A stretch of 64,000 nt of DNA from a virus: the IMG/VR virus record IMGVR_UViG_3300029049_000006. The stretch is one strand, 5' to 3'. Shown piece by piece: positions 7,003 to 63,732 of the stretch. Below the pieces are notes generated by a model. That model saw nothing but the letters and a program-made list of their open reading frames with translations. It did not search any database and had not been told where the DNA came from. The position numbers were made by a program, and so were the translations under genes. How positions within the stretch are numbered: the first letter of the stretch is position 1; the number at the start of each line of letters is the position of its first letter.

Positions 7003-7019
7003 TTTGCAATGATTGCAAA
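7003..7019. repeat. intergenic palindrome TTTGCAATGATTGCAAA, copy 2
   Basis: Perfect 17-bp palindrome + T7. 22 nt after the polymerase stop. Confidence 0.9.
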
Positions 7020-7047
7020 TTTTTTTCGTGAATTGAATACTTTTATC

Positions 7048-7124
7048 TTGCAATTTTCATTTTTTAGTGTTATAACAAACCCATCAAAGGGCGAAAGCCC
7101 TGAATCAATAAAAACATCACCAAT
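7048..7124 (+). promoter_or_regulatory. sigma70-like promoter (-35 TTGCAA, 17-bp spacer, -10 TATAAC) + structured leader
   Basis: TTGCAA-N17-TATAAC. Leader CATCAAAGGGCGAAAGCCCTGAATC (GGGC/GCCC stem) followed by an A-rich tract to ATG 7125. Confidence 0.55.
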
Positions 7125-8393
7125 ATGAGCAAGACCGAAATTGATATTACCAAGCCGCTTAATCTGGCTGACCGCCAAGAACTCCGTTTTACCGGATACG
7201 CCACGCAGAACAATGACCCGAAGCTGTCTCCGGGAGATGTCATCTATTTTCTGAAACAGGCGCGGGACGATAAAAACATCCCTGTTTATGACGTTGCCAC
7301 TACCAAAAAGGGCAAGGTAGCCGTGGAAAGTCTTTACGCTGACGAATTTGAAGTTGTGGATGCGGATTCCACGCCGGAAGCCGCCCCGGTTGCGGCCCCT
7401 GCCAAAAAGAAAAAGACGGAATTCAAGAAGGTGGAGGAACCCGGCGAAGAGCAGCCCGCCCCCAAGGCTAAGAAGGCCAAAGCCGTCAAAGCGGAAGCCG
7501 CCCCTGCTAAGAAGACCAAGAAGGAAAAAGTGAAGGCCGAAGCCCCCGTGGAAGTGCAGGAGCCGCAGGAAGTCCAGGAACCTGCAGCTGAGGCTGAATC
7601 CGTTCCCGCCGTCCAGCCCGAAGCCGTCAAGGAAGTTGAAGACATCAAGCCCGCCTCCACTCCGGAATTGGGAATGGATGCCGTAACCCTTAACTTGATT
7701 CAGGAACACGGCGGGAATGCCTGTGCCGCCGCCCTTGCCATTGCCAAGGATTCTGAGGCTAAGCGATTCCTTCTTGGCGGCGTGCTGCTGTACATCCAAA
7801 AAACGAAAGTTTACGAGGAAGAAAAGGATTCTGCCGGAGTTCCCCGCTTCACCGGGCAAAAGGGCTTTGCCATGTTCTGCGAGCAGTATATCGGGCTTTC
7901 CTATTCTTCCGCAAAATTGTACCAGCGCATCTACGCTAATTTCACCAGCATGGGCCTCGGTGTTGAGGATTTTCGGAGAGTGGGCACGGCTAAGGCCCGT
8001 GAAATTGTGCAAATGATTGAGCTGGACTTTTCCAAGGCCGACGTTGAGGAGGCTATCCATATCGGCGAGACGAAAACGCACGAAGAACTGCACTCCCACG
8101 TAAGTTCAAAAATGCAGGATGCCGAAATTGAGGGGCATGGATTACGCGATAAGGTTAAATGCACGCTCTACAAATTTGAGGTGTTTGCTGACCAGGAAGA
8201 CATCATCAACGCCGCCATCCGGCTGGCAATGGACAATGGAGACATTAAGGACACCGACCAGAACGCCCTTGGGCGCGCGTTTGTTTCCATCTGTTCCGAC
8301 TATTTGCAGGCGTACAGCAAAGTGGCGCAGCCGGTGGTAGATGAAACCGAAGAATTTCAGGAATCTGTAGCCCAGGAATCCGTCAATGCTTGA
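7125..8393 (+). CDS. protein with lysine/alanine/proline-rich histone-H1-like linker
   Basis: 422 aa. Central low-complexity region AAPAKKKKTEFKK...PKAKKAKAVKAEAAPAKKTKKEKVKAEAP, reminiscent of H1 / AlgP KPAA repeats. Conserved N- and C-terminal domains of unknown function. Behind a promoter-leader module. Confidence 0.5.
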   Translation: MSKTEIDITKPLNLADRQELRFTGYATQNNDPKLSPGDVIYFLKQARDDKNIPVYDVATTKKGKVAVESLYADEFEVVDADSTPEAAPVAAPAKKKKTEFKKVEEPGEEQPAPKAKKAKAVKAEAAPAKKTKKEKVKAEAPVEVQEPQEVQEPAAEAESVPAVQPEAVKEVEDIKPASTPELGMDAVTLNLIQEHGGNACAAALAIAKDSEAKRFLLGGVLLYIQKTKVYEEEKDSAGVPRFTGQKGFAMFCEQYIGLSYSSAKLYQRIYANFTSMGLGVEDFRRVGTAKAREIVQMIELDFSKADVEEAIHIGETKTHEELHSHVSSKMQDAEIEGHGLRDKVKCTLYKFEVFADQEDIINAAIRLAMDNGDIKDTDQNALGRAFVSICSDYLQAYSKVAQPVVDETEEFQESVAQESVNA

Positions 8394-9111: not shown

Positions 9112-9128
9112 TTTGCAATCATTGCAAA
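9112..9128. repeat. intergenic palindrome TTTGCAATCATTGCAAA, copy 3
   Basis: Perfect copy + T7 after the RNase H stop. Confidence 0.9.
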
Positions 9129-9157: not shown

Positions 9158-9248
9158 TTGCAATTCATCAAAAATAATGCTAAATTGTGTTCATCAAAGG
9201 GAGGAAAGCTCCTAAGAATAAAAAACCTAAATTAGAAAGACCAAAACA
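9158..9248 (+). promoter_or_regulatory. sigma70-like promoter + structured leader
   Basis: TTGCAATTCATCAAAAATAATGCTAAATT gives -35 / N17 / extended -10 TGCTAAATT. Leader hairpin AGGAGGAAAGCTCCT. Confidence 0.55.
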
Positions 9249-11269: not shown

Positions 11270-12295
11270 ATGAATACAAACCAACCATCACAGAGCGCAA
11301 GGCGCGGTAAATCCGCATTGGAGCAGGCCGCAAAAAGTCAGCAGCAGCAATTCAGCCGGCAGCGCATGCCGTTCAGGTTTTTCCTCCCCAAAGGCGGCGA
11401 GGCTAAAATCGTCATTCTTGATTATGCTTTTGCCACCGACGACGGAACCGGAAACGGGCTTGTCATCAAGGAGCATAATTTGAAAAAGCCTGACGGGACG
11501 TTCGGGGATTTTCAGCCCTGCACTTCGGAGCGCGGGCATTGTGATATTTGCGAAACCTATAAGAAAGAATTCGCCCCGTATTACGCCGTAGTCATGTCCA
11601 TTATTGACTGGCGGCCGTACACCAACAAAAACGGGGAGACCGTCCAAGGCTCCAAAAAGTTGCTGGTCATTAAAATGTGGCAGCGCGACAAGTGGTACGA
11701 GCTTCAAGAAGTCGCGTTCGCGCAGAACGGCAAGCGCGGCATGCGGGGCATGACCCTCCGGATGAAACGGAGTATGGACGCGAAGAGCAGCAGCATTGGC
11801 GAGCCTGTGGCGTTTACTTCCCCCGCATCAATGGCCGGGCGCATGTGCGGATTCATGTCGGAGGAAGCTATGTTGATACGATTTGGCGGGCAGGATATTG
11901 TTGGACGCGACGGCAAGGTCTATCAGAAGGCCGGAGACGGCATCAAGCCGTTCAACTACGACGAGCTTTTCCCGGAACCGGAACCCATCAATGAATTTTC
12001 CAACTCCAATTCCCGGTCTTCCGGTGATGCGGATTTTGGTGACGATGAAGACTTCGGTCAGGATTTGCAGGACGGTAACAGCGCGTCCGGAGATTTCGAC
12101 CCGGAAGATTTCCGCCCCTCGGCAGACCAGGACGGCGGGGAAGATTACCTTAACGCCGACGCGGATTTTGCCGGTGATGAAGATTTTGAGCAGGAGCCTC
12201 CCGCCCGCACCAGAGGACGTCGCGTGCCTGACCCGGAAGAACCGGGGCAGCCGGGCCAAAGCCAGGATGATTTCGATGACGACATCCCCATGTAG
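11270..12295 (+). CDS. single-stranded DNA-binding protein, gp32-like, with acidic SSB-like C-terminal tail
   Basis: 341 aa. His/Cys cluster CTSERGHCDIC (Zn site as in T4 gp32). Long acidic C-terminal region ending DDFDDDIPM, nearly identical to the bacterial SSB tip DFDDDIPF. Confidence 0.55.
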   Translation: MNTNQPSQSARRGKSALEQAAKSQQQQFSRQRMPFRFFLPKGGEAKIVILDYAFATDDGTGNGLVIKEHNLKKPDGTFGDFQPCTSERGHCDICETYKKEFAPYYAVVMSIIDWRPYTNKNGETVQGSKKLLVIKMWQRDKWYELQEVAFAQNGKRGMRGMTLRMKRSMDAKSSSIGEPVAFTSPASMAGRMCGFMSEEAMLIRFGGQDIVGRDGKVYQKAGDGIKPFNYDELFPEPEPINEFSNSNSRSSGDADFGDDEDFGQDLQDGNSASGDFDPEDFRPSADQDGGEDYLNADADFAGDEDFEQEPPARTRGRRVPDPEEPGQPGQSQDDFDDDIPM

Positions 12296-12323: not shown

Positions 12324-13748
12324 ATGGACGCTATTTTATCTCAACTTTGCTGGATTCCAAAAATGCGGTTAACGCCGACACAGGAAGCGGAATTGATTTC
12401 CGACCTGACTATTTACCCACGGCTTTCCGGGTTTTCGGATGATGCAGCTCTGAAAAAGATTCAAACGTTCATTTCCGGCAAAACTTATATCGGCGTGCCG
12501 TGCTTTTACGGGCGGCAGTGGTGCGAGAAGCACCGCATTGCCATTAAGGATGACACGTCTTCCGGGTTTAACATTTCCCGGTACATCCGCAGGTTGCCCG
12601 ACCCGCATCATCCGTCCGCTTCCCAGGGGCAGGAAGAATTCTTTTCTTCCCTTCTGGAAACGGTTAAATCCAACAATACCGTTTTGGCGGAAGCCCCCAC
12701 CGGAAGCGGAAAAACCGTGACGGCGTTGAATGCCATTGGTCGCCTGGGGCGTTCCGCGCTGATAGTCGTCCCGAACGGTCCGCTGATGGAACAATGGAAA
12801 AAAGAGGCTATCCGGCATCTTGGACTGACCGAGGATGAAGTCGGCGTAATTGGCGGGGGCAAATCCGTTTGGAAGGACAAGCCGGTGGTGGTGGCTATCA
12901 TCCACAATATCTGCATGGCCTCCATGCCGGATGCGTTTTACCGGGCGTTCGGAATTACGGTATGGGATGAAGCCCACGTTGTGGGTGCGGAATGGTTTAG
13001 CCTGTCCACGCAGCACCTGCGTTCAAAATACCGGATTGCCATTACCGCCACCCCAAACCGTTCTGATGGGTGCATGCGAATTGTTACGGACGCATTCGGC
13101 CCCGTTGCCGTAAGGCATAGTGGGAACGCGGTTCCGCTGATTTACGCCCCGTTGAGTTACAATCTCCCGGCTAAACTGCGGGCCTGGGCTGACCGTGCCC
13201 AGGGTAAAGAGCTGTCCAGGGTGCTAAAGGCGTTGACCGCTGACCTGCCGCGTAATATTAAAATCGGGAGGCTGGCGCTTGCCGGATATAAAAAAAACCG
13301 TAATATACTGCTGATTTCCGACCGCATTTCCCATTTGGAGGCCATGCAGGGCATTTTAGTTCATCTCGGCATTCCGTCCGAACACATAGGCATGTTTTCC
13401 GGGGCGGTAAAGGGCGACAAGGACGTATCCGGGAAAAAAAAGTTGACCAAAAAACAAAAACTGGATGATGTGGTCAAAAATCCTAAATACCGGGTGATTC
13501 TGGCGACTTATGCAATGATGAAACTCGGCATTGATATTCCCCGGCTTGACATGGGAATCGACATCAGCCCGAAGAGTGAGGCCGTGCAGACTGTGGGGCG
13601 TATCAGAAGGCCGTTCCCGAATAAGCCGACTCCGGTCTGGTTTACGGTTGTCGATTCCAGCCGGAAATTCCAGGCCCTGTACCGCAGCCGGGAACGGGAA
13701 CTGCTGTCGAAGGGCAGCGTAGAAATAAGACCGATTAAAACTTTATGA
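12324..13748 (+). CDS. SF2 DEAD/DEAH-box helicase (UvsW/RAD25-like)
   Basis: Walker A LAEAPTGSGKTV. DEAH box VWDEAHVV. Helicase C-terminal domain. 474 aa. Confidence 0.75.
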   Translation: MDAILSQLCWIPKMRLTPTQEAELISDLTIYPRLSGFSDDAALKKIQTFISGKTYIGVPCFYGRQWCEKHRIAIKDDTSSGFNISRYIRRLPDPHHPSASQGQEEFFSSLLETVKSNNTVLAEAPTGSGKTVTALNAIGRLGRSALIVVPNGPLMEQWKKEAIRHLGLTEDEVGVIGGGKSVWKDKPVVVAIIHNICMASMPDAFYRAFGITVWDEAHVVGAEWFSLSTQHLRSKYRIAITATPNRSDGCMRIVTDAFGPVAVRHSGNAVPLIYAPLSYNLPAKLRAWADRAQGKELSRVLKALTADLPRNIKIGRLALAGYKKNRNILLISDRISHLEAMQGILVHLGIPSEHIGMFSGAVKGDKDVSGKKKLTKKQKLDDVVKNPKYRVILATYAMMKLGIDIPRLDMGIDISPKSEAVQTVGRIRRPFPNKPTPVWFTVVDSSRKFQALYRSRERELLSKGSVEIRPIKTL

Positions 13749-14290
13749 CATTAAGTGACACTAACAAAACTGCTGTTGAGGCCGGAGCCGGGAATGATTC
13801 TGCCCGGATTCCTGGCCGCAAAAAAAAATACGAGACAAAGCGTGAAATGCAGATAGCGAAAAACCGCTACCACAAAACGCTGACCTACAAAGTCAAAAAC
13901 CGGGCGCGGTATCATGTGGATTCCGACTACCGGGAATCGGTACGATTGCAAAACCGGAAAGCAAATGAGCGGAAGAAACGCATCATGCTGGCGCAGGCAG
14001 TCGTCCGGGGAGGGAAGTACCTGCGTGCGGTGATGAATGAACCGCCCATTGTCGTTGCCGGAGAAGAGCTGATAACAAGAAAAAGATTTTTGGAGTTAAT
14101 CAGCCGGTCATATCCAACCCTGGTACGGTGGAGGGCACACAGAAAATTTACCGTGGAGGAAGTGCATATTTCCGTGGTCCGGAACGGTCGAGTTGTCCCC
14201 CGTCTGGAACAGATAGCCTACCGGAAAAAAGATTTAATCCAATTCATCGATGCCAACCGTGAATATGTCGGACTGACGAAAACGAGCTAA
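13745..14290 (+). CDS. basic hypothetical protein
   Basis: 181 aa, rich in R/K. Start overlaps the upstream stop (ATGA). Confidence 0.45.
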   Translation: MTLSDTNKTAVEAGAGNDSARIPGRKKKYETKREMQIAKNRYHKTLTYKVKNRARYHVDSDYRESVRLQNRKANERKKRIMLAQAVVRGGKYLRAVMNEPPIVVAGEELITRKRFLELISRSYPTLVRWRAHRKFTVEEVHISVVRNGRVVPRLEQIAYRKKDLIQFIDANREYVGLTKTS

Positions 14291-14301: not shown

Positions 14302-14318
14302 TTTGCAATGATTGCAAA
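14302..14318. repeat. intergenic palindrome, copy 4
   Basis: Perfect copy + T7. Confidence 0.9.
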
Positions 14319-14352: not shown

Positions 14353-14730
14353 ATGAGTCAAGAAACATCCAATCGTTCCAGAGCGTTGCCCCCGCAGGGA
14401 GGTTCCGCTATCGTAGAAACCGCCGTCACGCAGAACCGCGTTCCGGTAACGGGCGGCGCGCATTCCATGCCGCTGAATCCGTTGTACAATGATAACCGCC
14501 CGTCAAATAACCCGGCGTATGTGGCCGTCGGCGCGTCCTTGACGCTTCCGGGGCGGCAAATGTATTCATCCGTGAAAATTATGGCCACAGTCACCCTTCC
14601 GGCTTTTCCGGACGATGAATCCATTCAGGCTGCGGCGCAGGCCGCCGGAAATATGGCGGAAACGTTTTTATACGAAGAAGCCGACCGTTTTAAAGACTTT
14701 CTTCCGGAAGAAGGGAGGGGGCGTTGCTGA
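14353..14730 (+). CDS. hypothetical protein
   Basis: 125 aa ATG ORF, 30 nt after palindrome copy 4. Confidence 0.4.
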   Translation: MSQETSNRSRALPPQGGSAIVETAVTQNRVPVTGGAHSMPLNPLYNDNRPSNNPAYVAVGASLTLPGRQMYSSVKIMATVTLPAFPDDESIQAAAQAAGNMAETFLYEEADRFKDFLPEEGRGRC

Positions 14731-15956
14731 TGGCCGGGGAATCGCCAAAACGGTCGAGGTCGCAAAAAGCATCCGCCCCGGCGGGGCTGGCCGAACTGCG
14801 TGCCGACCTCGTGAAAGGCGGGCGTGGGCGGGCTATGGACGGCAGCCGCATCGGCGTAGATGACTGGATGATTCCCACGGGAATCTTCCACTTGGATTAC
14901 GCTTTTTTGGGCGGCATCCAGGAAGGCCAGGTGACGATGTTCCTGGGGCTTCCGTCCGCGCATAAAACGACTATCGCCCTGAAAACCATTGCCGGGCTGC
15001 ACCGGAAATACCCGGATAAATGGGCGGTGCTTGTGGATGCGGAAGACAACTACGACCAGAAATATTCACAGGATTTGGGCATTGATACCGACCGCCTGGA
15101 AGTCATCAAACCCTTTGACGGGCCTACCGCCGTTGATGCGCTGGAAGCCGCATTGCGCGTCCCGGAAGTAGGGCTTGTCGTGCTGGATTCCATCCCTGCC
15201 TGTTCCGGGATGCAGGTGCTTACCAAATCGGCGGAAGATGCGAGCGTGTCGGAATTGGCGACAATCATGAGCCGGATGGCAAGTAAAATCACCTCGACGC
15301 TGGTGACGGAAAAAGAAAAAGGGCATCTGGTGTCCGTTATTCTTTTAAATCAGTTCCGTTCTAAAATCGGCGTCATGTTCGGGAATCCGCTGACCAGCCC
15401 CGGAGGTTATTTTATCAACCACCTGGCGACGAGAAAAATCGTGTTCCGGTCAAAGTCCATTCTTCAAAGCACCAGCCTGGATGAAAAAGCGGAAGGAGTG
15501 GCCCAGATTTCTTTCACGGTGGAAAAATCAAAGTTCGGCGGTCCTGTCCGGGCTGGGGAATTTTTCATGTCGCATCTTCCGCAGGGCTACCCGGTGATGA
15601 ACCCGTCGGCAACCAAGGAAAGCACCCGCATCTGCGTCAACCGCCCCTATTTACAGGGGGAGGTGATTGAAGAGCCGCAGGTAGTCCAGCTGGCCGTGAA
15701 ATACGGGCTGCTTTCCGGCGCGGGGGCCAACATGTCCTGTCCGCTTGTCTCCCAGGAAAAGATGTCCAAGACGCAATGGATGCTGTGGCTTAGGGACCAC
15801 CCGGAAGAATCGGCTGTGCTCAAGGCAAACCTTGTCGCTCTGTACCGGGCGTACTCCAACCGCCAAACGGTTCCGGTTGACGGGTATCTGCTCGGAGTCG
15901 GAAAAGATAGGATTCTGCCGGAGGAAAGCCTCCGGAAGATTATCGCCAACATGTGA
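14730..15956 (+). CDS. RecA/UvsX-family recombinase
   Basis: Walker A [9 protein letters not shown] (RecA GPESSGKTT). VVLDSIPAC (RecA IVVDSVAAL). [23 protein letters not shown] closely parallels RecA [23 protein letters not shown]. First ATG at 14730 (the track starts at TTG 14724). Confidence 0.8.
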   Translation: [408 protein letters not shown]

Positions 15957-15968
15957 GGTGGGGGGGGT

Positions 15969-16328
15969 ATGAAACAACCAAAACGTTTAGGGGTTTTGAC
16001 GCAGAGCCGGGCCTATAACCACGCCCCGGTACAGGAGCGGGAAGCCGCGAAAAGGCTTGGCGGGCGTACCACTCCGGCATCCGGCTCCCTCCGGGAAAAA
16101 GGTGATGTGCGTGTTTCCGGCATTCTTCGTTTGGAGTGTAAGGCGACTTCAAAAAAATCGTTTTCCGTCACCAGGGACATGGTGCGGAAAATCACGGAAG
16201 CCGGAGAACTTTCCGGGGAGCTGCCCGCCATTGAAATTGAGTTTCTTCCCTTGGCCGGGCAATTTCACGGGAGGGTTGCCGTTGTTCCGGCATACGTTCT
16301 GAATCAACTTGTTACCGGGGAAAAATAG
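15969..16328 (+). CDS. putative Holliday-junction resolvase, Hjc-like PD-(D/E)xK
   Basis: 119 aa. GSLREKGDV....LECKATSKKSFSVTRDMVRKITE....PAIEIEF resembles archaeal Hjc (GSSAERE..DI..LSIECKST...V....V.KL....PLIAIKF). Confidence 0.4.
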   Translation: MKQPKRLGVLTQSRAYNHAPVQEREAAKRLGGRTTPASGSLREKGDVRVSGILRLECKATSKKSFSVTRDMVRKITEAGELSGELPAIEIEFLPLAGQFHGRVAVVPAYVLNQLVTGEK

Positions 16329-16329
16329 C

Positions 16330-17286
16330 ATGGATAAGCAACAATTACTTCGCCGCCTTGGCTGGGAGCGTTCCCAGCCTCGGATAACCGTATCGGAAGC
16401 GGCGCATCCGACACAGGGGCCGTCGTCATCATTGGGGAGGGTTGACCTCCCCTCGGCGATTTCCGGAACGGTCGAACTTGAATCGCTGTCCGATATTTTG
16501 AACCGGGCCAGCAGGCAGCTTCACGAGTCTGAAAGGGTGCATGCGGATTGCCTGCACGTATCAAGTCTGATAGGCGATTATTTATGCCCCCGCCGGATTT
16601 GGCTTGCGAGGCATCACCACCTCACGGCTGTCAGCCGGGTCAGCCCCGCAATGAAAATTGTGTGGGACATGGGCCGGGCATGCGAAAAAACTGTCCGCGA
16701 TTTGCTGATTGCCGGAATGGGCCGGTCAAGAGTTCTTGGAAAGTGGTCATGTGCGTGCGGAAAAACGTCGCACGTCGGACAGGGTCAGGAAATTCATTGC
16801 AGTATCTGCGATACCGACTGCGCTATTTATGGCGAAGCTGACCTGTACTATTCGCCGCTAAAGATTTTCGGGCATTCCGATTTTATTTATCTGGACGAAA
16901 ACCGGAACGTCAATGTCGTGGAGATTAAATCCATCAATAAATCCGACTGGCTTGCATTATCGGAGCCGAAGCGTGACCACGTTGCCCAGGTCTCCATGTA
17001 TTACTTTATGCTGCGGGAGTCGATGGGGCAGGAGCGCATGTATCCGGGTGCGCAGATTATTTATGTGTGCAAGGATTACATTACGCGGCAAATGCCGTGG
17101 AAGTGCTACACCGTCCCGCAGGGAACCTGTGAAGCCGTATCCGAAGAGGTTTTACGCACGGCAACCGCAGTCCAGAGCGGATACGCTCCCGCCTGCCCGC
17201 CCCGGCTGATGTGCTGCACGTCGCCGGATTGCCTCACGTCCCGAAATTGTATTGCATGCGCCGTTTGTTTTATGCACAATGATTAA
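16330..17286 (+). CDS. PD-(D/E)xK nuclease with C-terminal Cys cluster (Cas4/RecB-like)
   Basis: ATG 16330. GHSDFIYLDE...VNVVEIKS gives a D..D/ExK core. C-terminal CPPRLMCCTSPDCLTSRNCIACAVC is a possible Fe-S or Zn site. Confidence 0.4.
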   Translation: MDKQQLLRRLGWERSQPRITVSEAAHPTQGPSSSLGRVDLPSAISGTVELESLSDILNRASRQLHESERVHADCLHVSSLIGDYLCPRRIWLARHHHLTAVSRVSPAMKIVWDMGRACEKTVRDLLIAGMGRSRVLGKWSCACGKTSHVGQGQEIHCSICDTDCAIYGEADLYYSPLKIFGHSDFIYLDENRNVNVVEIKSINKSDWLALSEPKRDHVAQVSMYYFMLRESMGQERMYPGAQIIYVCKDYITRQMPWKCYTVPQGTCEAVSEEVLRTATAVQSGYAPACPPRLMCCTSPDCLTSRNCIACAVCFMHND

Positions 17287-17310
17287 ACATTAAAGATAGA
17301 TAGACGATTT

Positions 17311-17538
17311 ATGTTTTCACAGCCAGTATCCCCCGCCGTAGTCCGTACTTGCCGGATGTACGGAGTTCCTGAGGCCCTTGCCCCGATATGCCGGAATTTG
17401 ACGAAGACGGGAATCAAAAAATTAGGAAGAGCGTATAAGGATTATACCGTCAAATGCGGAGCTGACCTGACCTGCGCTGATGCCAGCAACTGGGGCGGAA
17501 CCGTCATGCGAATCTTACGTGATTACCGGAAAAAATGA
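17311..17538 (+). CDS. small hypothetical protein
   Basis: 75 aa ATG ORF between the nuclease and RuvC. Confidence 0.35.
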   Translation: MFSQPVSPAVVRTCRMYGVPEALAPICRNLTKTGIKKLGRAYKDYTVKCGADLTCADASNWGGTVMRILRDYRKK

Positions 17539-18104
17539 ACATCCTCGGCATTGACCCGTCCCTGACTGCTACCGGGCTTTATTTGCGGGAAACCGGGCTT
17601 ATGGCCGCCCCGGAATCCACGCTGATTGCCCCAAAAAATTTGAGGGACATGGAGCGGCTGTGTTTTATCCGCGACTTCCTTCTCGGATTCATCAACAGAG
17701 ACCGGGCGTTTTCTCCTGAATTGGCAGTCATTGAAGGGTATGCAATGGGAGCGAAAACCCATACACATGACCTCGGCGAAGCCGGGGCTATGCTGAAAAC
17801 TGCGGTTTACGAGGCGGGAATTGACCTGCTGATAGTCCCGCCCGCCACGCTGAAAAAGTTCATCACGGGAAGCGGGAACAGCAAAAAACAGGTGATGATG
17901 GTGGAAGCGCTTTCCCGGTATCATGTCAAAATTACCGATGATAATATTTGTGATGCGTTCTGCCTGACACATTTTGGGGAAGCCTGGTACGCGGCTAATG
18001 CTTTTGGCCGTACAGCGGGAAAAATCGGCATCACAAAAAGCCAGTATGCCTGCCTGTCCGCCGCCCGGCTGGTTCCTGGCCGCAAACGGTCGTCTCGGAG
18101 ATAA
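17535..18104 (+). CDS. RuvC-like Holliday junction resolvase
   Basis: ILGIDPSLTATG. AVIEGYAMGAKTHTHDLGEAGAMLKTAV. KKQVMMVE. NICDAFCL. Follows the RuvC pattern (ILGIDPG..G, AxEx.F, QVQxMV, DAADAL). Confidence 0.8.
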   Translation: MNILGIDPSLTATGLYLRETGLMAAPESTLIAPKNLRDMERLCFIRDFLLGFINRDRAFSPELAVIEGYAMGAKTHTHDLGEAGAMLKTAVYEAGIDLLIVPPATLKKFITGSGNSKKQVMMVEALSRYHVKITDDNICDAFCLTHFGEAWYAANAFGRTAGKIGITKSQYACLSAARLVPGRKRSSRR

Positions 18105-18131
18105 CCGGCTGCCGGTTTTTCCTTTTTCCAA

Positions 18132-18148
18132 TTTGCAATCATTGCAAA
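18132..18148. repeat. intergenic palindrome, copy 5
   Basis: Perfect copy + T7 after the RuvC stop. Confidence 0.9.
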
Positions 18149-18176
18149 TTTTTTTCGCTGATTGTGTAATTTTATC

Positions 18177-18273
18177 TTGCAATTTCTAAAAAATAATGCT
18201 AAATTACATTCATCAAAGGGAGGGAATCCCTGAGAGAAAAAACCTAAAAACCTAAAAAACCTGTTAGACTAAA
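18177..18273 (+). promoter_or_regulatory. sigma70-like promoter + structured leader
   Basis: TTGCAATTTCTAAAAAATAATGCTAAATT. Leader CATCAAAGGGAGGGAATCCCTGAGAG, then an AACCTAAAAACCT tract. Confidence 0.6.
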
Positions 18274-18861
18274 ATGAATGCGATTGAAACCATGAGCCAG
18301 AAAGAGCTGAAAGAATATTACGCCGCTCTCACTTGCGGGGAAGGAACCAAGGCGGCTAAATGGACTATATCCGGTGCTTTTGAGATTGTAAAATTGTCTG
18401 ACGGAAAACTTTATAAAATAGAAAAGCACCAGCTGGAAACTTCCTTCTGCTTTGGCTACGACGTAACGGAAGAATCGGAACGCCGCGCGGATTCCCTGGC
18501 AGCGGACGCTAAAACTTATGAGGCGTTTTTGGCCGCCAATCTGGAAACCATAGCGCGGGACATTAACCGGCTGGAAAAGGCTATCGCCAATGGCAATACA
18601 CCGCAGTTCGACGGCACGAAAGCCTTCTACTCCTGCAACGCTTATGTCAACGGACCAGATACGGCGGTATGCGTATTTTTCATGAACTGGATGAACGATT
18701 TCCGGGGTATGGAAAACACACACCTTACTTCCGTGTCCGACCTTGAGCTGATTATTGCCGCCTTGAAGCGCAAGGCGGAAAACGTCCGGAAGCGTTGCCT
18801 TTCCTACTGGAAAAAATACGGGGCCAGCAAGCTTAATGTCTGGACGTATTACCGTGATTGA
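18274..18861 (+). CDS. hypothetical early protein
   Basis: 195 aa, behind a promoter-leader module. N-terminus MNAIETMSQ is similar to the 20062 gene. Confidence 0.5.
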   Translation: MNAIETMSQKELKEYYAALTCGEGTKAAKWTISGAFEIVKLSDGKLYKIEKHQLETSFCFGYDVTEESERRADSLAADAKTYEAFLAANLETIARDINRLEKAIANGNTPQFDGTKAFYSCNAYVNGPDTAVCVFFMNWMNDFRGMENTHLTSVSDLELIIAALKRKAENVRKRCLSYWKKYGASKLNVWTYYRD

Positions 18862-18864
18862 ACA

Positions 18865-18881
18865 TTTGCAACGATTGCAAA
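18865..18881. repeat. intergenic palindrome, copy 6 (TTTGCAACGATTGCAAA)
   Basis: One mismatch + T7. Confidence 0.85.
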
Positions 18882-18910
18882 TTTTTTTCTCAAAAAGATT
18901 CTTTTTTCTC

Positions 18911-19003
18911 TTGCAATTTCTAAAAAAGAATGATAAATTGAGTTCATCAAAGGGAGGGAAACCTCCCAAGAATAAAAAACCTAAAAACCTGAAAGACAAG
19001 ATT
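18911..19003 (+). promoter_or_regulatory. sigma70-like promoter + structured leader
   Basis: TTGCAA-N17-TGATAAATT. Hairpin GGGAGGGAAACCTCCC. Confidence 0.55.
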
Positions 19004-19216
19004 ATGAACAACAAAGAAACATTCTATCTGGTTGAAGTTTACCACCTCGGAACTGCTGTTGGCAGCCTTATTTCCCTTGACCATGTGCACCGTTGCAAGT
19101 CCCTGGAATCTGCGAAAGACTTTGGTTCCATCATGAAAGAAAAAAATGGGTGGTTTGAAGTAACGGAAATTACTTCCAAAGGCCGTTCCATTGTGTTTGA
19201 CTCCCGCAACAACTAA
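19004..19216 (+). CDS. small hypothetical protein
   Basis: First ATG at 19004 (MNNKETFYLVEV...) after a promoter-leader. The track ORF starts at 18836 inside the leader. Confidence 0.4.
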   Translation: MNNKETFYLVEVYHLGTAVGSLISLDHVHRCKSLESAKDFGSIMKEKNGWFEVTEITSKGRSIVFDSRNN

Positions 19217-19228
19217 CCCGTCAGGACG

Positions 19229-19417
19229 ATGAAAGTACAGGCTAAAGTTATTACCGAACAGGAGTGCAAATGGCACGGGGTTGCCCTTCAAGATATGGAA
19301 GTGGCGGAAATCCGGGTTGCTGCCTGGTTCCTTACTGAAAAGTCTTGTGGAATAAAAAACCGTCAATATGATTTTGAAGGGGTCAAGGCTAAAAAAAAGC
19401 GGCATCCTCGGAAGTAA
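19229..19417 (+). CDS. small hypothetical protein
   Basis: 62 aa ATG ORF. Confidence 0.3.
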   Translation: MKVQAKVITEQECKWHGVALQDMEVAEIRVAAWFLTEKSCGIKNRQYDFEGVKAKKKRHPRK

Positions 19418-19448
19418 CGCAAATGCTGGTTCTGGGAGTCGTTTTTTC

Positions 19449-19562
19449 ATGAAATCAAAAGCACAAGCCGCCATTGATATCCTTCTCAAAATGCGGAACA
19501 CGGAATGGGAAAATCGGTATAAAGAAAACGGCATTAAGTTTGAAACCTGCGTGAATATCTAA
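19449..19562 (+). CDS. small hypothetical protein
   Basis: 37 aa from ATG 19449 (MKSKAQAAIDILLK...). Ends just before a hairpin. Confidence 0.2.
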   Translation: MKSKAQAAIDILLKMRNTEWENRYKENGIKFETCVNI

Positions 19563-19656
19563 AATCCTCAAGCCCCTCTTTGGAGGGGCAAGACCCCTCC
19601 ACCGCAACCAGAAAAACTTTTCAGCAGTAAAAATTTTCGGTGGTACTAATTAGGTT

Positions 19657-19913: not shown

Positions 19914-19918
19914 TTCAA

Positions 19919-49795: not shown

Positions 49796-49812
49796 TTACG
49801 TCTTTCTGCGAA

Positions 49813-50545: not shown

Positions 50546-51362
50546 CGCCCCGGAGTTCATCAAATACTCCCACCACCTGATTGACCTCGCCTTGAGAAAA
50601 GCCCGGCGTCCGGCCATCCTCTGTTCCTACGGCAAGGATTCCGGCGTTGTCCTGCATTTGCTCTCCCAGCACGTCGATTTATCCCGCATCGACGTTATTT
50701 ACATTGATTCCACTTTTGAATTCCCGGCGTTTTACAAGCACATTGCCAGGATGAAGGCTTTTTTCGGCATCCGGCACGGCGGCCCTCATGACGTGCGCTG
50801 CCAGAATAACCAGGCCATCCGTTCCGGCATGTCCTACGACAACACCCCGGTGCTCAAGTTGACGCAGACCCTGAAAACCGACGTATTGGTGCAGGTGCTG
50901 AAAGAGCGGAATATTGACTTTCTGTTCACCGGCATCCGGCGCGACGAAGAGGGTTCTCGCGCCAAGGAACGTTATTTTTCCTACCGGGAAGCCGACGGCA
51001 CGTTTGACCCGGTAAGCAACCGCCCCGGATTCTACCCGTTGGATGGGCTGGATGTGCAGTCCCCCGGTTCCGGGCACTATCGCGTCAATATCCTTCTGAG
51101 CTGGTCGGAGCGGGACGTATGGGAGTACACGGAAAAGCACCTGCTTCCTGTCTGCCCGCTGTACCTTGCCAAAAACGGGAAACGCTACCGCTCCCTTGGA
51201 GACGAGCCGGTGACTACTCCGGTGGATTCCGACGCTGACAGTATCGACAAAATCATTAAGGAGCTGTACCATACCAGCGTGCCGGAACGGGCATGCCGGA
51301 AATCACAGGATAATTCCGCGCCGTATGCAATGGAGATGCTGCGGCGCAAGGGATTCTGCTAA
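50511..51362 (+). CDS. cysD: sulfate adenylyltransferase subunit 2-like (CysD/NodP, PAPS-reductase superfamily PP-loop)
   Basis: PP-loop ILCSYGKDSGVVLHLL. LFTGIRRDEEGSRAKERYFSYRE matches the CysD signature GxRRDEEKSRAKERIFSFRD. LSWSERDVWEYTEKHLLPVCPLYL (cf. NWTELDIWQYI..E.IP.VPLYF). Confidence 0.75.
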   Translation: MITPFASYPPSDAPEFIKYSHHLIDLALRKARRPAILCSYGKDSGVVLHLLSQHVDLSRIDVIYIDSTFEFPAFYKHIARMKAFFGIRHGGPHDVRCQNNQAIRSGMSYDNTPVLKLTQTLKTDVLVQVLKERNIDFLFTGIRRDEEGSRAKERYFSYREADGTFDPVSNRPGFYPLDGLDVQSPGSGHYRVNILLSWSERDVWEYTEKHLLPVCPLYLAKNGKRYRSLGDEPVTTPVDSDADSIDKIIKELYHTSVPERACRKSQDNSAPYAMEMLRRKGFC

Positions 51363-51392
51363 CAGTTCCATTTTTTCCTTTCCGCTCTTGCC

Positions 51393-52115
51393 ATGATACC
51401 GGATGACCCGTTCACCCAGCCGGAAAAAAAACCTGAAAAGCCGGGAGGCATCACGCAAATCTGGATAGGCGGAGAAGATAATATACCGCAGGAAATGCGG
51501 GAATGGATGTCCGGGGTGCGGGCCTACTGTAACCGGTTCGACCTTCCGTACCGCTGCTTGAACGGGAGGCAATGCAAGGCCCTGCTGGATGAGTTCGGCA
51601 TCCCGTTCAACCCTACCGGGGGCATCATGAGCCTGACCGACATGGCGCGGGTGTGCGCCCTGAAAAAATGGGGCGGCTGGTATCTGGACACAGACGTAAA
51701 AATCCAGCGTCCGGCAGCCTTCCATGATTACTCGGTTTCCGTCTGCGAACAGGAGCCTTCTACTGTTTTTTACAATGCCATCACCTACGGCTGGATGTAC
51801 AATCACGGAGTGCTTTACGCTTCCGGGGACGATTCCTGTTTGTTTCTGGATGTCATGCTGGATGCGTGCCGGGAGACGTACAGGACAGTCCATGCTTCCG
51901 ATTCCGGGTGGGGGCTGGAAAGCACCGTTCAAAATATAGTGCATCATGACCGCCAATGGGTAGGCTGGCATCGAGGACTGCCAAAGGGCGTTTGCGATTG
52001 CGGCAATCCGTCCAGCATGATTAACCATGTGCTTTATGGGACCTGGTACAATAGCGCACACATGACTCCCGGCATCAAGGACGCGGAAACTTATTCAAGG
52101 GTTTCCGATTTGTAG
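51393..52115 (+). CDS. glycosyltransferase, GT32-like (Gly_transf_sug, DxD)
   Basis: ITQIWIGGEDNIPQE. KKWGGWYLDTDVK. Matches the conserved QIWIG / GGxYxDxD blocks. Confidence 0.55.
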   Translation: MIPDDPFTQPEKKPEKPGGITQIWIGGEDNIPQEMREWMSGVRAYCNRFDLPYRCLNGRQCKALLDEFGIPFNPTGGIMSLTDMARVCALKKWGGWYLDTDVKIQRPAAFHDYSVSVCEQEPSTVFYNAITYGWMYNHGVLYASGDDSCLFLDVMLDACRETYRTVHASDSGWGLESTVQNIVHHDRQWVGWHRGLPKGVCDCGNPSSMINHVLYGTWYNSAHMTPGIKDAETYSRVSDL

Positions 52116-52164
52116 CCCGGAATAATTTTTGCAAAAAAGAAAAAACAATGGTAATACGTAGCGC

Positions 52165-53016
52165 ATGCCACGTGAAAAAATCATCATTGCCGTGTGCGGA
52201 ATCCCTGACACGGGAAAAAGCACCTTTATCGCCAACGCCGCAAAACACCTGAACGGAATGGAGGTCCAACCGGATGCCCTGTGCGTAGAACAGCAGACCG
52301 GGAAAACCATTGCAACCTCATTCATCACCACCTGGGGCGAAGAGTGGCAGCGGGACGGAAAAACCTGCGATTTGGTCTTTGTGGACTGCCCCGGCCATGT
52401 GCAGTTCCTTCCGGAGATTGTCGCGGGCTTGTCTGCGGCCCATGCCTACATTGTCATCCATGACGCTTCCCGCATTGAGGCGAGCCAGGCATATGCCCGG
52501 ATGCTGGAAGATGTCGCAGGCGTGCTTAGCGTGCCTCGGCTCGCCACCCTCTACAGCCATTGCGACAGCACCGGGGAATACTGCTACAACGTAGGTGTTG
52601 ACAACCGGCTTCCGGGAACTGCCGAAAGGGTTATCCGGCGTGCCCTGGCGGGCGGCAAAGATAAGCTGGTCCATCCCACGGCATCCTGGCTTGGCTACAT
52701 CCGGCAGGAGCCGTTCGATACGCCTGATGCCCGGCACAGGGTGTCCGTCATCTGGCTTCCCTGCGCTTCCCGGCTCACTCCGGTTTCCCTTCTCCGGGCG
52801 GAGCTTCCCGACCGAACGGTCGAACTCGGAGAGGCTGGCTCCGTTCTAGACCCCATCCCCAGGGAAAGCGACTTCCAGACCGCCCCATTGATACGGCACA
52901 TTTACCTGCAATTCCCTGTCCGGTATCTGGACCCCGTGCGCTTCCTGATTTGCGACTCGGAGCTGGGAACGGTCGGAGTCGGAACAGTAACCCCGTGGGA
53001 AACCCAAATGTTATGA
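52165..53016 (+). CDS. EF-Tu-like GTPase, CysN/NodQ-like (GTPase domain only)
   Basis: G1 AVCGIPDTGKSTFI (cf. GHVDHGKST). G3 DCPGHVQF. No clear NKxD. 283 aa, shorter than CysN. Confidence 0.45.
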   Translation: MPREKIIIAVCGIPDTGKSTFIANAAKHLNGMEVQPDALCVEQQTGKTIATSFITTWGEEWQRDGKTCDLVFVDCPGHVQFLPEIVAGLSAAHAYIVIHDASRIEASQAYARMLEDVAGVLSVPRLATLYSHCDSTGEYCYNVGVDNRLPGTAERVIRRALAGGKDKLVHPTASWLGYIRQEPFDTPDARHRVSVIWLPCASRLTPVSLLRAELPDRTVELGEAGSVLDPIPRESDFQTAPLIRHIYLQFPVRYLDPVRFLICDSELGTVGVGTVTPWETQML

Positions 53017-53234
53017 GCAACGTAGCCATCCCCTACCGGCCCCACGACTGCCCCGTCTGCGGAAAGAACCTTTGCTACAGCGCCGGAAAGGACGGCTGCT
53101 ATTATTCCTGCCCGGAATGCAGGTATTCCGTCCAGTCCGGTGCGACCCTGCAAGAAGCACAAAGGCATCTTTTCATTTTTACGGCGGCAGTCCTCAAAAA
53201 TCAGAACACGCAACACGACACCATCATCCAATGA
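53013..53234 (+). CDS. small zinc-ribbon protein
   Basis: CPVCGKNLCYSAGKDGCYYSCPEC. ATG 53013 overlapping the upstream stop. Confidence 0.35.
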   Translation: MSNVAIPYRPHDCPVCGKNLCYSAGKDGCYYSCPECRYSVQSGATLQEAQRHLFIFTAAVLKNQNTQHDTIIQ

Positions 53235-53734
53235 TTATTCTTCTCACCGGCGAAAGCGGCGTAGGAAAAACGTCTGTGGCAAAAACCCTGATGAACCGGC
53301 ATCCAGGCATCCTTCTCGACGGCGATGACATGCGGGACGGATTGAACAGCGACCTCGGATTTTCCGACCGGGACATCATGGAGAACATGCGCCGGGCGGC
53401 GCACATAGCCGTACTGCTGCATGACCAGCTTCCGGAAGACCGGCGCACGGTTTACATCACCTGCATTGCCCCGCTGCTGGCCGGAAGGAATCTGGTGCAT
53501 GAGCTGTGCGGTTCCCGGTTGTGGGAGATCCGCATCCAGTATGATTACCGGGCCTCCGACGACGTAAAAGGATTGTACAAGGCGGGAACCCCCATGCGGG
53601 CCTACGAAGAGTACCCCAGCGAAACGTTGCTGCTCCCCCGCCGGATAAACCGCGTATATCGGTACTACAACGATACCGTGTGCGCTCTGGCCGCCAAAAT
53701 AGAAAAGCTGTGGCCCACAGACAAAACCGCTTGA
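53231..53734 (+). CDS. cysC: adenylylsulfate (APS) kinase
   Basis: P-loop LTGESGVGKTSVA. LDGDDMRDGLNSDLGFSDRDIMENMRRAAHIAVLL matches CysC [34 protein letters not shown] (cf. FISP). Confidence 0.8.
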   Translation: MIILLTGESGVGKTSVAKTLMNRHPGILLDGDDMRDGLNSDLGFSDRDIMENMRRAAHIAVLLHDQLPEDRRTVYITCIAPLLAGRNLVHELCGSRLWEIRIQYDYRASDDVKGLYKAGTPMRAYEEYPSETLLLPRRINRVYRYYNDTVCALAAKIEKLWPTDKTA

Positions 53735-53869
53735 CAAAGGCGTATCCGTCCCTGTACATTACCCCTGTTTTGGAGCATTCCTGACAGGATGTTTCTAGGT
53801 TTCTCCCTCCCCTTGGCGCTCTAAGGGGAGGGAGTTTTTTTGCGCTGATGTCCGTATCTTCCGCCCCAA

Positions 53870-53886
53870 TTTGCAATGATTGCAAA
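53870..53886. repeat. intergenic palindrome, copy 17
   Basis: Perfect copy + T7. Downstream of the sulfation cassette and preceded by the GC hairpin GGGGAGGGAG... Confidence 0.9.
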
Positions 53887-53914: not shown

Positions 53915-54011
53915 TTGCAATTTTTAAAAAGAAAGGTATGATGAAGGCATCAAAGGGAGGAAAAAGCGAATCTCCCTTTTAAAGAAAAAACTGAAACATA
54001 CCTGCACTACA
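53915..54011 (+). promoter_or_regulatory. sigma70-like promoter + structured leader
   Basis: TTGCAA-N17-GGTATGATG (weaker -10). Hairpin AAGGGAG...CTCCCTT. Confidence 0.45.
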
Positions 54012-56066: not shown

Positions 56067-56083
56067 TTTGCAATCATTGCAAA
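56067..56083. repeat. intergenic palindrome, copy 18
   Basis: Perfect copy. Confidence 0.9.
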
Positions 56084-60717: not shown

Positions 60718-60734
60718 TTTGCAATCATTGCAAA
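60718..60734. repeat. intergenic palindrome, copy 19
   Basis: Perfect copy upstream of the Mu-F-like gene. Confidence 0.9.
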
Positions 60735-62985: not shown

Positions 62986-63698
62986 ACTTTGTCTGGCTCA
63001 ACAACCAATTCGGCAACCAGATATGGCAGATTGCCGTGGCGACGTTTTTTTTTGGAAGGGGGAACTTTGCCGCGATAACCTCCTATGCCGTGCCGCTGAA
63101 AGGAATTGGCTTCCACGCATTTCTGCACGTGCCCTGTTTTCCGTTCAACCGGGAGACAAGCGCCCTCGCCCCGCAAACGGTTTACGTCAAAAGAGGGGTT
63201 CCCATTCCTCGCGGCACAAACTCCATCAGTGACGGGCAGTTGCAGGACGTAGCCTATTTGCGTAATCTGGATGCCCGCCAGTTATTGACGTTTGACGGCA
63301 TTGACAACGATTTCCGCATTGTCCATGTCCGGGGCGGCGATTTTTTTACCAGCAAGCCGCACAGGCCCTACGTCAAAAACCGGGACTGGTATCTTAAAGC
63401 CATTGACGCTGTGCCCGATATGCGGAAGCACCGGGACAAAACAGTATTGCTTACAAACGACAAAAAATACGCGGGGAAAATCCTTCCCGAATTTCCCATA
63501 CTGGACGTGCCGCCCTTGACTGCGTTCCGGCTGATGATGGGCTGTCGCTCTCTGGTTATATCCGCGTCATCCTTTGGCTGGTGGGCCGGGTATCTGAATC
63601 CGTCAGCGCAGATTGCCGCTCCTTCCCGGTGGTGCGGCGCCGGAGAGGATTCGGCGAAATATTACGGGCATAGCCGCTTGATGTTCATACCTGATTAA
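62982..63698 (+). CDS. glycosyltransferase, GT11 (alpha-1,2-fucosyltransferase)-like
   Basis: N-terminal LNNQFGNQIWQIAVA (cf. GGLGNQMFQYA). C-terminal SSFGWWAGYLNP (cf. STFSWWAAYL). ATG 62982 overlaps the upstream stop. Confidence 0.5.
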   Translation: MNFVWLNNQFGNQIWQIAVATFFFGRGNFAAITSYAVPLKGIGFHAFLHVPCFPFNRETSALAPQTVYVKRGVPIPRGTNSISDGQLQDVAYLRNLDARQLLTFDGIDNDFRIVHVRGGDFFTSKPHRPYVKNRDWYLKAIDAVPDMRKHRDKTVLLTNDKKYAGKILPEFPILDVPPLTAFRLMMGCRSLVISASSFGWWAGYLNPSAQIAAPSRWCGAGEDSAKYYGHSRLMFIPD

Positions 63699-63715
63699 CC
63701 CGGCAGACCGGCAAA

Positions 63716-63732
63716 TTTGCAATGATTGCAAA
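63716..63732. repeat. intergenic palindrome, copy 20
   Basis: Perfect copy after the GT11-like gene. Confidence 0.9.

Follow-up and report, generated by a model that had tools for sequence, protein, structure and literature searches.

The phage segment analyzed here, a 64,000-nt stretch of IMG/VR record IMGVR_UViG_3300029049_000006 (the window) with nearly all of its genes on the + strand, carries 20 copies of a 17-bp palindrome, TTTGCAATSATTGCAAA; 9 to 10 of them accompany promoters, and the remainder are placed between a stop codon and a start codon. Selection on the site is strong and sequence-specific. The site is symmetric up to its center, its copies change in concert by lineage, and it keeps a fixed spacing to promoters. 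We put at about even the chance that the palindrome is a multi-copy operator, recognized as double-stranded DNA by a putative phage-encoded regulator that is homodimeric and two-fold symmetric. Protein binding, the phage origin of the protein, and the direction of its effect are what we infer from the sequence. An operator for a dimeric regulator was one of three roles named in the original prediction, next to a weak terminator and a recognition element for a modified RNA polymerase, and it is the best supported of the three by the restriction of variation to the center, the compensating arms, the symmetry up to the center, and the fixed spacing.

Motif scans covered exact matches and matches with up to three mismatches, and dinucleotide-preserving shuffles served as the background. 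Fifteen exact copies of TTTGCAATSATTGCAAA are present where the shuffles expect 0.00, and at up to three mismatches the count is 20 where the shuffle expectation is 0.39 and the shuffle maximum is 3. These numbers bear out the claim of a density far above chance, and all 20 positions named in the original prediction are real, each being recovered at up to three mismatches. The 13 perfect copies counted there become 15, and the remaining copies do not differ at one central base as was stated: four (18865, 19919, 27389, and 38868) carry a single T8>C change adjoining the center, and the copy at 676, TTTGCAACGATTACAAA, has two mismatches to TTTGCAATSATTGCAAA. The layout is 8+1+8, with symmetry running right to the center. 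Of the 20 centers, 11 are G and 9 are C, and the two forms are mixed among the nine copies that make up the 5' end of a repeated promoter cassette of ~110 bp. The copies are spread fairly evenly, at about one per 3 kb, and are as follows.

676 to 692, the degenerate copy, without a cassette; the ATG of a DUF2997 gene is 10 nt on; identical in four other strains.
7003 to 7019, perfect, G center; upstream end of a promoter cassette.
9112 to 9128, perfect, C center; upstream end of a promoter cassette.
14302 to 14318, perfect and followed by T7, without a cassette; 11 nt past a stop codon and 34 nt ahead of an ATG, in the replication/recombination gene block.
18132 to 18148, perfect, with a cassette; a small terminator-like hairpin (18103-18117) is just upstream.
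18865 to 18881, T8>C, with a cassette; 3 nt past a stop codon.
19919 to 19935, T8>C, with a cassette; 14 nt past a strong terminator (19869-19904).
24452 to 24468, perfect, with a cassette; begins right after the stop codon of 23597-24451.
26192 to 26208, perfect, without a cassette; holds the TGA of gene 25818-26201, as predicted for one copy; an ATG is 38 nt on.
27389 to 27405, T8>C, with a cassette; 33 nt past a strong terminator (27330-27355).
32650 to 32666, perfect, without a cassette; 13 nt past the terL stop codon, a position kept in several relatives.
36980 to 36996, perfect, without a cassette; the ATG of the second ParB-like gene is 21 nt on.
38868 to 38884, T8>C, with a cassette.
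43004 to 43020, perfect, without a cassette; 4 nt past a stop codon and upstream of a tail-fiber-like gene.
47327 to 47343, perfect, without a cassette; 9 nt past a stop codon.
49813 to 49829, perfect and followed by T7, without a cassette; the first in-frame start of the next open reading frame (GTG at 49850) is 20 nt on.
53870 to 53886, perfect, with a cassette; 35 nt past a strong terminator (53803-53834).
56067 to 56083, perfect, without a cassette; flanking GAAA/TTTC extend the symmetry.
60718 to 60734, perfect, with no T-run; the ATG of a head-morphogenesis gene is 10 nt on.
63716 to 63732, perfect; a weaker promoter-like element, TTGTAT-N18-TAAACT (63738-63767), begins 5 nt downstream, a spacing like that in the relatives.

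Genes in the window are simple open reading frame (ORF) calls. The + strand ORFs cover ~87% of the window, and 19 of the 20 palindromes fall outside them. The exclusively intergenic placement that had been claimed stands for these 19; copy 18865 lies within an ORF that is probably spurious because it overlaps the promoter cassette. A distance of a few to about 30 nt from an upstream stop codon, also claimed for all copies, applies to 15 (33 nt or less) and fails for 27389, 38868, 53870, 63716, and 19919, whose nearest called upstream stop is ~74 to 356 nt away; a strong classical terminator intervenes at 27389, 53870, and 19919. At least five T directly follow 12 of the 20 copies (T5-7), in agreement with the earlier statement that most are so followed, and a usable T-run is missing at 8. 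Most of the copies without a cassette lie 0-33 nt past a stop codon. The next start codon is 10-106 nt downstream in seven of these eleven, and it is farther away or uncallable in the other four. A literature search for the motif string returned irrelevant matches only.

The promoter-coupled copies share a rigid architecture, in which promoters and start sites are sequence predictions. The order of elements is palindrome, T7 (T5 at 24452), a spacer of ~21 nt, the -35 box, a spacer of 17 nt (16 nt at 53870), and the -10 box. The ~21-nt spacer includes, in most copies, alternating, phased A- and T-tracts. CTTGCAATT serves as the -35 box, the promoter core is TTGCAA-17-TAAATT, and the -10 box is TG-extended and TAAATT-like. 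An invariant leader, CATCAAAGGG, comes next, and after it a hairpin of varying sequence, often with a GAAA loop, and an A-rich tail that runs up to the ATG. The nine cassettes are as follows.

7048 to 7101, + strand, -35 TTGCAA at 7048-7053, -10 TATAAC at 7071-7076, CATCAAAGGG from 7082, hairpin 7088-7101 with a GAAA loop.
9158 to 9213, + strand, -35 at 9158-9163, TG-extended -10 TAAATT at 9181-9186, leader from 9192, hairpin 9199-9213.
18177 to 18235, + strand, -35 at 18177-18182, -10 at 18200-18205, leader from 18211 with a hairpin.
18911 to 18967, + strand, -35 at 18911-18916, -10 at 18934-18939, leader from 18945, hairpin 18952-18967 with a GAAA loop.
19965 to 20023, + strand, -35 at 19965-19970, -10 at 19988-19993, leader from 19999 with a hairpin.
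24497 to 24552, + strand, -35 at 24497-24502, -10 TAACTT at 24520-24525, leader from 24531, hairpin weak.
27434 to 27492, + strand, -35 at 27434-27439, -10 at 27457-27462, leader from 27468 with a hairpin.
38913 to 38972, + strand, -35 at 38913-38918, -10 TAACTT at 38936-38941, leader from 38947, hairpin 38954-38972.
53915 to 53979, + strand, -35 at 53915-53920, -10 TATGAT at 53937-53942, leader from 53948, hairpin 53952-53979.

The distance from the palindrome center is 37-38 bp to the -35 box in all nine cassettes and 71-73 bp to the inferred start. The leader CATCAAAGGG occurs exactly nine times on the + strand, each time 78-80 nt past the start of a palindrome, so every promoter of the cassette class has a palindrome. 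TTGCAA had been taken for the -35 box of the downstream promoters. This is correct at the nine cassette copies, where the box is 28-29 nt downstream of the palindrome, and incorrect at the other eleven, which have no cassette promoter. The TTGCAA of the palindrome arm was rejected as a -35 box itself; no copy has a TAnnnT -10 at the required distance (16-18 bp) from either arm.

The predicted cassette transcripts all start with the invariant CAUCAAAGGG, then have the hairpin, and then A-rich AAAAACCU repeats. The leaders span 7082-7101, 9192-9213, 18211-18235, 18945-18967, 19999-20023, 24531-24552, 27468-27492, 38947-38972, and 53948-53979. The hairpins were folded singly, a sequence-only consensus fold being uninformative, and their pairing is kept between copies while the stem sequence varies. 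The leader could be a 5' stabilizer or a protein-binding leader, somewhat boxB-like. Outside the window, a palindrome with a variant cassette lies in reverse orientation to the genome at position 47424 (L116 3356) of IMGVR_UViG_3300014804_000005, an arrangement suggestive of a divergent transcription unit. The best sigma-70 consensus match of the window, TTTACA-16-TATAAT (11/12) at 45523-45550, sits between the tail-fiber gene and the following gene and has no palindrome near it.

Comparison of strains shows how narrowly the palindrome is constrained. Multiple exact copies of the motif are confined to viral contigs with 93-97% identity to the window, among them the 83.6-kb IMGVR_UViG_3300014804_000005, with at least 24 copies; several of these contigs have Human Microbiome Project-like identifiers. 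Each of the 20 sites keeps its position from strain to strain. Among 47 orthologs of the palindrome in other strains, the 11 base changes are limited to position 8 (T/C) and position 9 (C/G). The 705 arm positions show 0 changes, against 3.4% divergence in the flanks. From strain to strain, one and the same site switches its center between C and G and never has A or T there. The TerL cluster of the phage has 248 member sequences, and the species was recovered from several metagenome samples. A nucleotide search of 50,697 phage records gave no match, and cultured phages gave no TerL identity above 33%. A search for the exact motif across 185,579 species genomes gave scattered single matches only, among the matches listed, and a host repeat or host-factor site was rejected on these scattered single bacterial occurrences.

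The palindrome is re-spelled in related phages. The relatives are metagenomic, with 39-46% TerL identity and GC contents of 44-64%, and are fragments of ~4-21 kb except for G284, an 87.7-kb contig (IMGVR_UViG_3300010399_000004) of which 74.8 kb was covered. A short palindrome of its own, at 2.3-5.5 copies per 10 kb, is present in nearly every lineage. The G284 palindrome, TTTGAAAASTTTTCAAA (TTTGAAAA-S-TTTTCAAA), has 41 copies in 74.8 kb, with its C/G centers at 24:15, and TTGCAACWGTTGCAA and TTGACCGTCGGTCAA have the same format elsewhere in the clade. Further lineage palindromes are TTGCAAC-W-GTTGCAA, TTGACCG-T-CGGTCAA, TAGAAAA-C-TTTTCTA, TTGCAA-N3-TTGCAA, TTGCAACCGGTTGCAA (even, with no center), and TTTGCACG-NN-CGTGCAAA. 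The outer TTG...CAA is retained in most lineages, and the inner positions are altered on both arms jointly. The innermost pair that flanks the center is complementary in most lineages (T/A, A/T, C/G, or G/C), the exceptions being L277 and some L273 copies. These data show that the palindrome format is kept across the clade with a changed arm sequence, which answers the comparison with related phages proposed in the original prediction.

Placement is also recognizable in the relatives. Their copies sit upstream of genes, a TGA stop is often within the left arm (TTGA...), and 0-15 nt past the palindrome comes the following ATG or a Shine-Dalgarno sequence. The position right after terL is conserved in several lineages. 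In at least eight other lineages, some palindromes end 6-8 nt ahead of a promoter-like -35 hexamer; the 28-29 nt of the window equal this spacing plus ~21-22 bp, or two helical turns. A few G284 copies come directly after a -10 box and hence overlap the start site, a classic repressor position. About 10 of the 41 G284 copies may lie inside ORFs, which are crude gene calls. What the window phage and G284 share in protein content is chiefly replication and structural proteins, with a few small unknown ones in addition. At L259 14394, a palindrome directly follows a sequence that resembles a tRNA 3' end by eye (GGTTCGAGTCC...CCA), and a TG-extended -10-like box is 3 nt downstream. A tandem array of CCAGCAAAGC(C/T)G-like units lies at the locus end of L289 (18900-19045).

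Recognition as double-stranded DNA is favored because the symmetry reaches bases that are unable to pair in a hairpin, which needs a loop of at least 3 nt, and because the AT-rich versions would give stems with a single G-C pair. It is further favored because, in the window phage and G284, C and G centers are nearly equal in number, mixed among cassettes, and interchangeable at one site between strains, and because the exact sequence, beyond pairing, is conserved within each genome. In the proposed mechanism, a dimer at the palindromes would control transcription at each transcription-unit boundary. The dimer at each of the nine cassette copies, and perhaps at 63716 too, would lie on one helix face upstream of a host-type promoter and modulate initiation, with its center at about -72/-73 in the window and about -51 in the relatives. 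The cassette promoters may be shut off or boosted by the bound dimer; timed repression is somewhat likelier than activation because these promoters look self-sufficient. Copies that overlap a start site in the relatives would repress directly. The promoter-less copies wedged between stop and start codons may be roadblocks to elongating polymerase, insulators, or marks of the unit boundary, or alternatively they may recruit polymerase to late genes. The T7 tract of the window lineage could add weak intrinsic attenuation.

Several points weigh against an operator. No convincing binder was found by Pfam and PHROGs scans of ~80 proteins of the window and the rest of the genome or by PDB sequence searches with conserved unknown proteins. 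The cassette promoters and their start sites are predicted, and with their good -35 and -10 boxes they do not look activator dependent. No single mode of action fits every copy because the position relative to the promoter varies (-73, -51, over +1, or none). The central base is strand biased in some relatives, being T in 10 of 10 copies of L279/L277 and in 7 of 8 in L256; a purely symmetric site does not predict this bias, which may point to an RNA-level or orientation-dependent component. The analogy with the stoperators of prophage silencing, considered below, may not apply because no integrase or lysogeny module was seen.

The binder was sought among the same ~80 proteins, and Pfam and PHROGs assigned replication, recombination, and structural functions but no convincing regulator-type helix-turn-helix. 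A phage RNA polymerase or sigma factor was not detected in the window, and no ORF of the window is of a suitable size or family. The protein at 1335-2243, which had been proposed as the binder, has a weak match to replication protein O below the Pfam cut-off, and not to a transcription regulator. The conserved proteins 7125-8393, 11270-12295, 13745-14290, 26247-27314, and 35403-36359 were rejected as regulators on the basis of no meaningful PDB sequence matches. The C terminus of 13745-14290 is excisionase-like by eye only.

The alternative that survives best is nonetheless an unlikely one, namely a double-stranded DNA site that serves some nontranscriptional process, for instance compaction, the marking of replication or recombination, self-recognition, or the targeting of hypermodification, which would be intergenic because it is hard to encode in genes. 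The authors of a study of 17-bp repeats in Cluster O mycobacteriophages concluded so for their elements (PMC4351075), and the even spread of the copies fits. The phage encodes RecA, RuvC, nucleases, an N6 methylase, and a module of ParB-like proteins and glycosyltransferases, and the conserved TTG...CAA ends present on both strands the NTG motif preferred by one ParB-dependent T-dioxygenase (PMC13229309). However, the helically phased, fixed promoter spacing in at least nine lineages is hard to explain by such a process, and all nine cassette promoters have a copy. Coding positions are not strictly forbidden either, given the G284 copies that may be in ORFs.

An RNA hairpin, UUUGCAA-USA-UUGCAAA, that together with a U-run would stop or attenuate host RNA polymerase at operon ends is a shade less probable. 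The copies follow a stop codon on the transcribed strand, 12 of the 20 have the T5-7 run, and flanking A/T lengthen the stem to at least nine pairs in several copies, reaching -13.8 kcal/mol at 56067. A terminator right before a promoter is also a common layout in compact phages. Against this, the stem has 7-9 bp with only 2 G-C pairs, is AU-rich beside the U-run, and closes a 3-nt loop, and most copies fold at -4.7 to -9 kcal/mol. Besides the eight copies without a usable T-run, the relatives lack it too (0 of 41 copies in G284, 0-1 per lineage elsewhere), and a terminator consensus scan of the window lists none of the palindrome copies. Terminators conserve structure and leave the sequence free, whereas the palindrome arms are invariant at all sites and strains, and the symmetry extends into bases that must be loop. 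Three strong classical terminators of the window lie next to palindromes.

19869 to 19904, + strand, strong classical terminator with 14 pairs (9 G-C) and T8, just upstream of copy 19919.
27330 to 27355, + strand, strong classical terminator with 10 pairs (7 G-C), upstream of copy 27389.
53803 to 53834, + strand, strong classical terminator with 14 pairs (9 G-C) and T7, upstream of copy 53870.

These are three of the four strongest classical + strand terminators of the window, each 14-35 nt upstream of a palindrome with a cassette, and they would make the palindrome redundant as a terminator. At places that require termination, the phage has a G+C-rich hairpin, and the palindrome is added all the same. 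The genes past promoter-less copies (14353-18104 and 43112-53734) have no recognizable promoter and need read-through, and the promoter-less copies between 38868 and 53870 must let polymerase pass because that stretch is without a recognizable promoter. A weak AU-rich terminator or insulator, the second role of the original prediction, is not supported as the primary role in view of the weak hairpin, the lineage-limited T-run, the upstream classical terminators, and the need for read-through. The 12 copies with a T-run may have a side role as weak attenuators.

It is improbable that the element is a hairpin in polycistronic RNA, read sequence-specifically by an RNA-binding protein or endoribonuclease of phage or host origin, in the service of RNA processing, stability, or the control of translation. 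Transcription of every copy runs in the sense of the genes, many palindromes of the relatives precede a start codon by 0-15 nt or stand immediately ahead of a Shine-Dalgarno sequence, and the L259 copy comes right after the tRNA-3'-end-like sequence. The strand-biased center of L279, L277, and L256 and the location of the variable positions in the would-be loop also agree with an RNA element. These observations are opposed by the AT-rich lineages, whose stem has one G-C pair (UUUGAAA/UUUCAAA), by complementarity that reaches positions unable to pair, and by C/G centers that are interchangeable even at one site across strains. The cassette copies are upstream of a promoter and therefore outside the downstream transcript, and there is no Rfam match.

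We assign very little probability to a selfish or mobile palindromic repeat, or a recombination cassette of the PeSL, REP, or MITE style, that would spread promoters and shuffle genes. The ~110-bp cassette is present ninefold, three copies flank small ORFs in the low-GC island at 18-20 kb, and the four T8>C copies belong to a single cassette subtype, a pattern suggestive of duplication. In contrast, all 20 sites hold their positions between strains, no transposase or RAYT gene was found, the motif is not multi-copy in bacterial genomes among the matches listed, and the clade-wide format and conserved post-terL position imply function. A 4.6-kb segment, 37810-42435, containing the second glycosyltransferase, cassette 38868, and ~9 small genes, is absent from IMGVR_UViG_3300014804_000005. 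The junction of this large strain indel is at a 9-bp microhomology, GCGCTGGCC, that is unrelated to the palindrome, with no palindrome there. The palindrome was rejected as a recombination hotspot on this evidence, the indel being the sole large one.

There is a similarly slim chance that the palindromes are the marking sites of a base-J-like epigenetic signal that delimits polycistronic units. Glycosylated 5-hydroxymethyluracil would be concentrated or read at the palindromes, and a symmetric reader would be a modified-base-dependent insulator. Kinetoplastids use base J at transcription termination sites; if this interpretation is true, the phage uses a modified base to delimit polycistronic units as they do. 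Its basis is the pairs of ParB-like and glycosyltransferase genes and the NTG motif in the TTG...CAA ends.

The window has a tandem duplicated pair, 32773-34796 and 37018-38769, each consisting of a ParB_N protein (the copies are 51% identical) and a TET-associated glycosyltransferase. A ParB-like gene with a glycosyltransferase is a signature of post-replicative thymine oxidation and glycosylation (PMC13229309). According to the same 2026 study, phage ParB-like proteins of such build have no DNA-binding domain and activate 5mYOX thymine dioxygenases, and they often neighbor glycosyltransferases and terminases (PMC13229309). The ParB-like genes are most likely part of a thymine-hypermodification module and not the binder, because of their domain build, the GHTR motif described below, the TET-associated glycosyltransferase next to each, and this precedent. 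The dioxygenase of the module was not identified, 35403-36359 giving faint cytidylyltransferase-like matches only. In L238 (7353-9308) and L240 (6248-8687), QueD, QueE, and GTP cyclohydrolase I, which belong to 7-deazaguanine modification, are beside terL. These Que genes at the locus of the window's thymine modification indicate differing DNA modification modules per lineage at the same locus.

Least probable of all is a parS/OB-like loading site for the ParB-like proteins acting as a CTP-dependent sliding-clamp repressor of the KorB type. The KorB OB site, TTTAGCGGCTAAA, is a G/C-centered palindrome, multi-copy on RK2, that represses promoters from a distance (PMC11790492). Two ParB_N proteins (~33030-33864 and 37018-37860) are encoded in the window, each with a palindrome copy ahead of it, and ParB-like genes are near terL in 17 of 25 lineages. 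This binder was dropped because the paralogs consist of ParB_N, an acidic linker, and an unrelated C-terminal domain with no helix-turn-helix, align to ParB/Spo0J/Noc structures by the N-terminal domain only, have GHTR where ParB has GERR, fit a T-dioxygenase-activator role (PMC13229309), and have no homolog in the 85% of genome G284 examined despite 41 palindromes there. A palindrome beside the ParB-like gene was likewise rejected as a clade rule, since it holds in only 2 lineages.

Other features of the genome provide context. The window encodes DnaB, PolA, primase, helicase, RecA/UvsX, RuvC, TerL, portal, head-morphogenesis, and tail-fiber-like proteins. A low-GC island at 18000-20100 (43% versus ~52% elsewhere) holds three cassettes in 2 kb and two strong terminators, 19661-19694 and 19869-19904, and looks like a hyperplastic early-gene region. 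The gene cluster at 182-1250 and upstream (L045), shared with G284, encodes an AAA+ ATPase, a 161-aa protein, a DUF2997 protein, and a 106-aa protein, and the degenerate copy at 676 lies inside it. Most window genes have no Shine-Dalgarno sequence and have A-rich leaders (for example, upstream of 14353, 26247, 37018, and 56125), a pattern that suggests limited reliance of the host on Shine-Dalgarno pairing. Akkermansia phages alone matched the tail-fiber N terminus in the phage database (37% over 128 aa). The C-terminal part of the tail-fiber-like gene, 44865-45461, is probably a variable receptor-binding region because it is unmatched in the 83.6-kb strain. No known RNA families (Rfam) or tRNAs were found.

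In this uncultured gut phage, one 17-bp word marks essentially every transcription-unit boundary. The palindromes are a ready-made map of regulatory sites for an uncultured clade of 75-95 kb phages, and on the operator interpretation they would be a natural experiment in which one protein and 25-40 target sites change together. Identification of the binder would supply compact, orthogonal operator/regulator pairs.

The closest known counterparts are the 17-bp dyad repeats of Cluster O mycobacteriophages, TGTTCGGNNNCCGAACA, which number 34 in Corndog and whose function and binder are not known (PMC4351075). Both elements have 17 bp, invariant inverted arms, a variable center, and ~25-40 copies per 70-85 kb genome. 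Both lack a clear link to orientation or transcription direction, and the Cluster O motif is absent from the host genome. No integrase is reported there and none was seen here, and the Cluster O authors also infer a dimeric DNA-binding protein. The layout differs, being 7+3+7 in Cluster O and 8+1+8 here. About one-third of the Corndog copies are in genes and only 4 are near promoters, whereas the copies here are intergenic and 9-10 of 20 are promoter coupled, and the format persists here with changed arms across a deep clade. The window phage is a tractable second example for the unexplained Cluster O repeats.

The nearest models in function are KorB-OB and the operators and stoperators of Cluster A phages (L5 gp71 type). 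The latter likewise number more than 20 copies of a short motif at promoters and in operon gaps (PMC9283540, PMC6550527), and the stoperator model, in which the bound protein blocks initiation and elongation, also fits the stop/start-wedged copies here (PMC9283540). However, stoperators are 13-bp, asymmetric, monomer-bound sites, oriented with transcription, that silence prophages of temperate phages (PMC9283540, PMC6550527). The palindrome here is symmetric and orientation-free in the window phage (C:G centers 9:11), and no repressor or lysogeny genes were found. The KorB-OB system of RK2 shares a short, G/C-centered, multi-copy palindrome and repression at a distance (PMC11790492), but KorB is a ParB-family CTPase with a DNA-binding domain that acts on a plasmid, and the ParB-like proteins here are without the domain or GERR. 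The lambda operators have the same 17 bp, with a pseudo-dyad through a central base pair, and the 8+1+8 two-fold layout typical of helix-turn-helix dimers; the six lambda operators are clustered at two promoters, whereas the sites here are single and dispersed genome-wide. The phiC31 operator is a 17-bp inverted repeat with many copies in intergenic early regions beside conserved promoters, in a temperate phage with a known repressor. The PeSL elements of T4-type phages are near-identical promoter and stem-loop cassettes before small early ORFs that are described as recombination substrates, and no PeSL-like rearrangement at palindromes was seen between the strains compared. The element does not fit the definition of an intrinsic terminator (its stem is AU-rich and its sequence invariant), a parS/OB site (there is no suitable ParB), a stoperator (it is symmetric), or a mobile palindrome. 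New here are the strict intergenic placement, the fixed geometry that ties the palindrome to a repeated promoter cassette, and the way in which one format is re-spelled across a deep uncultured clade.

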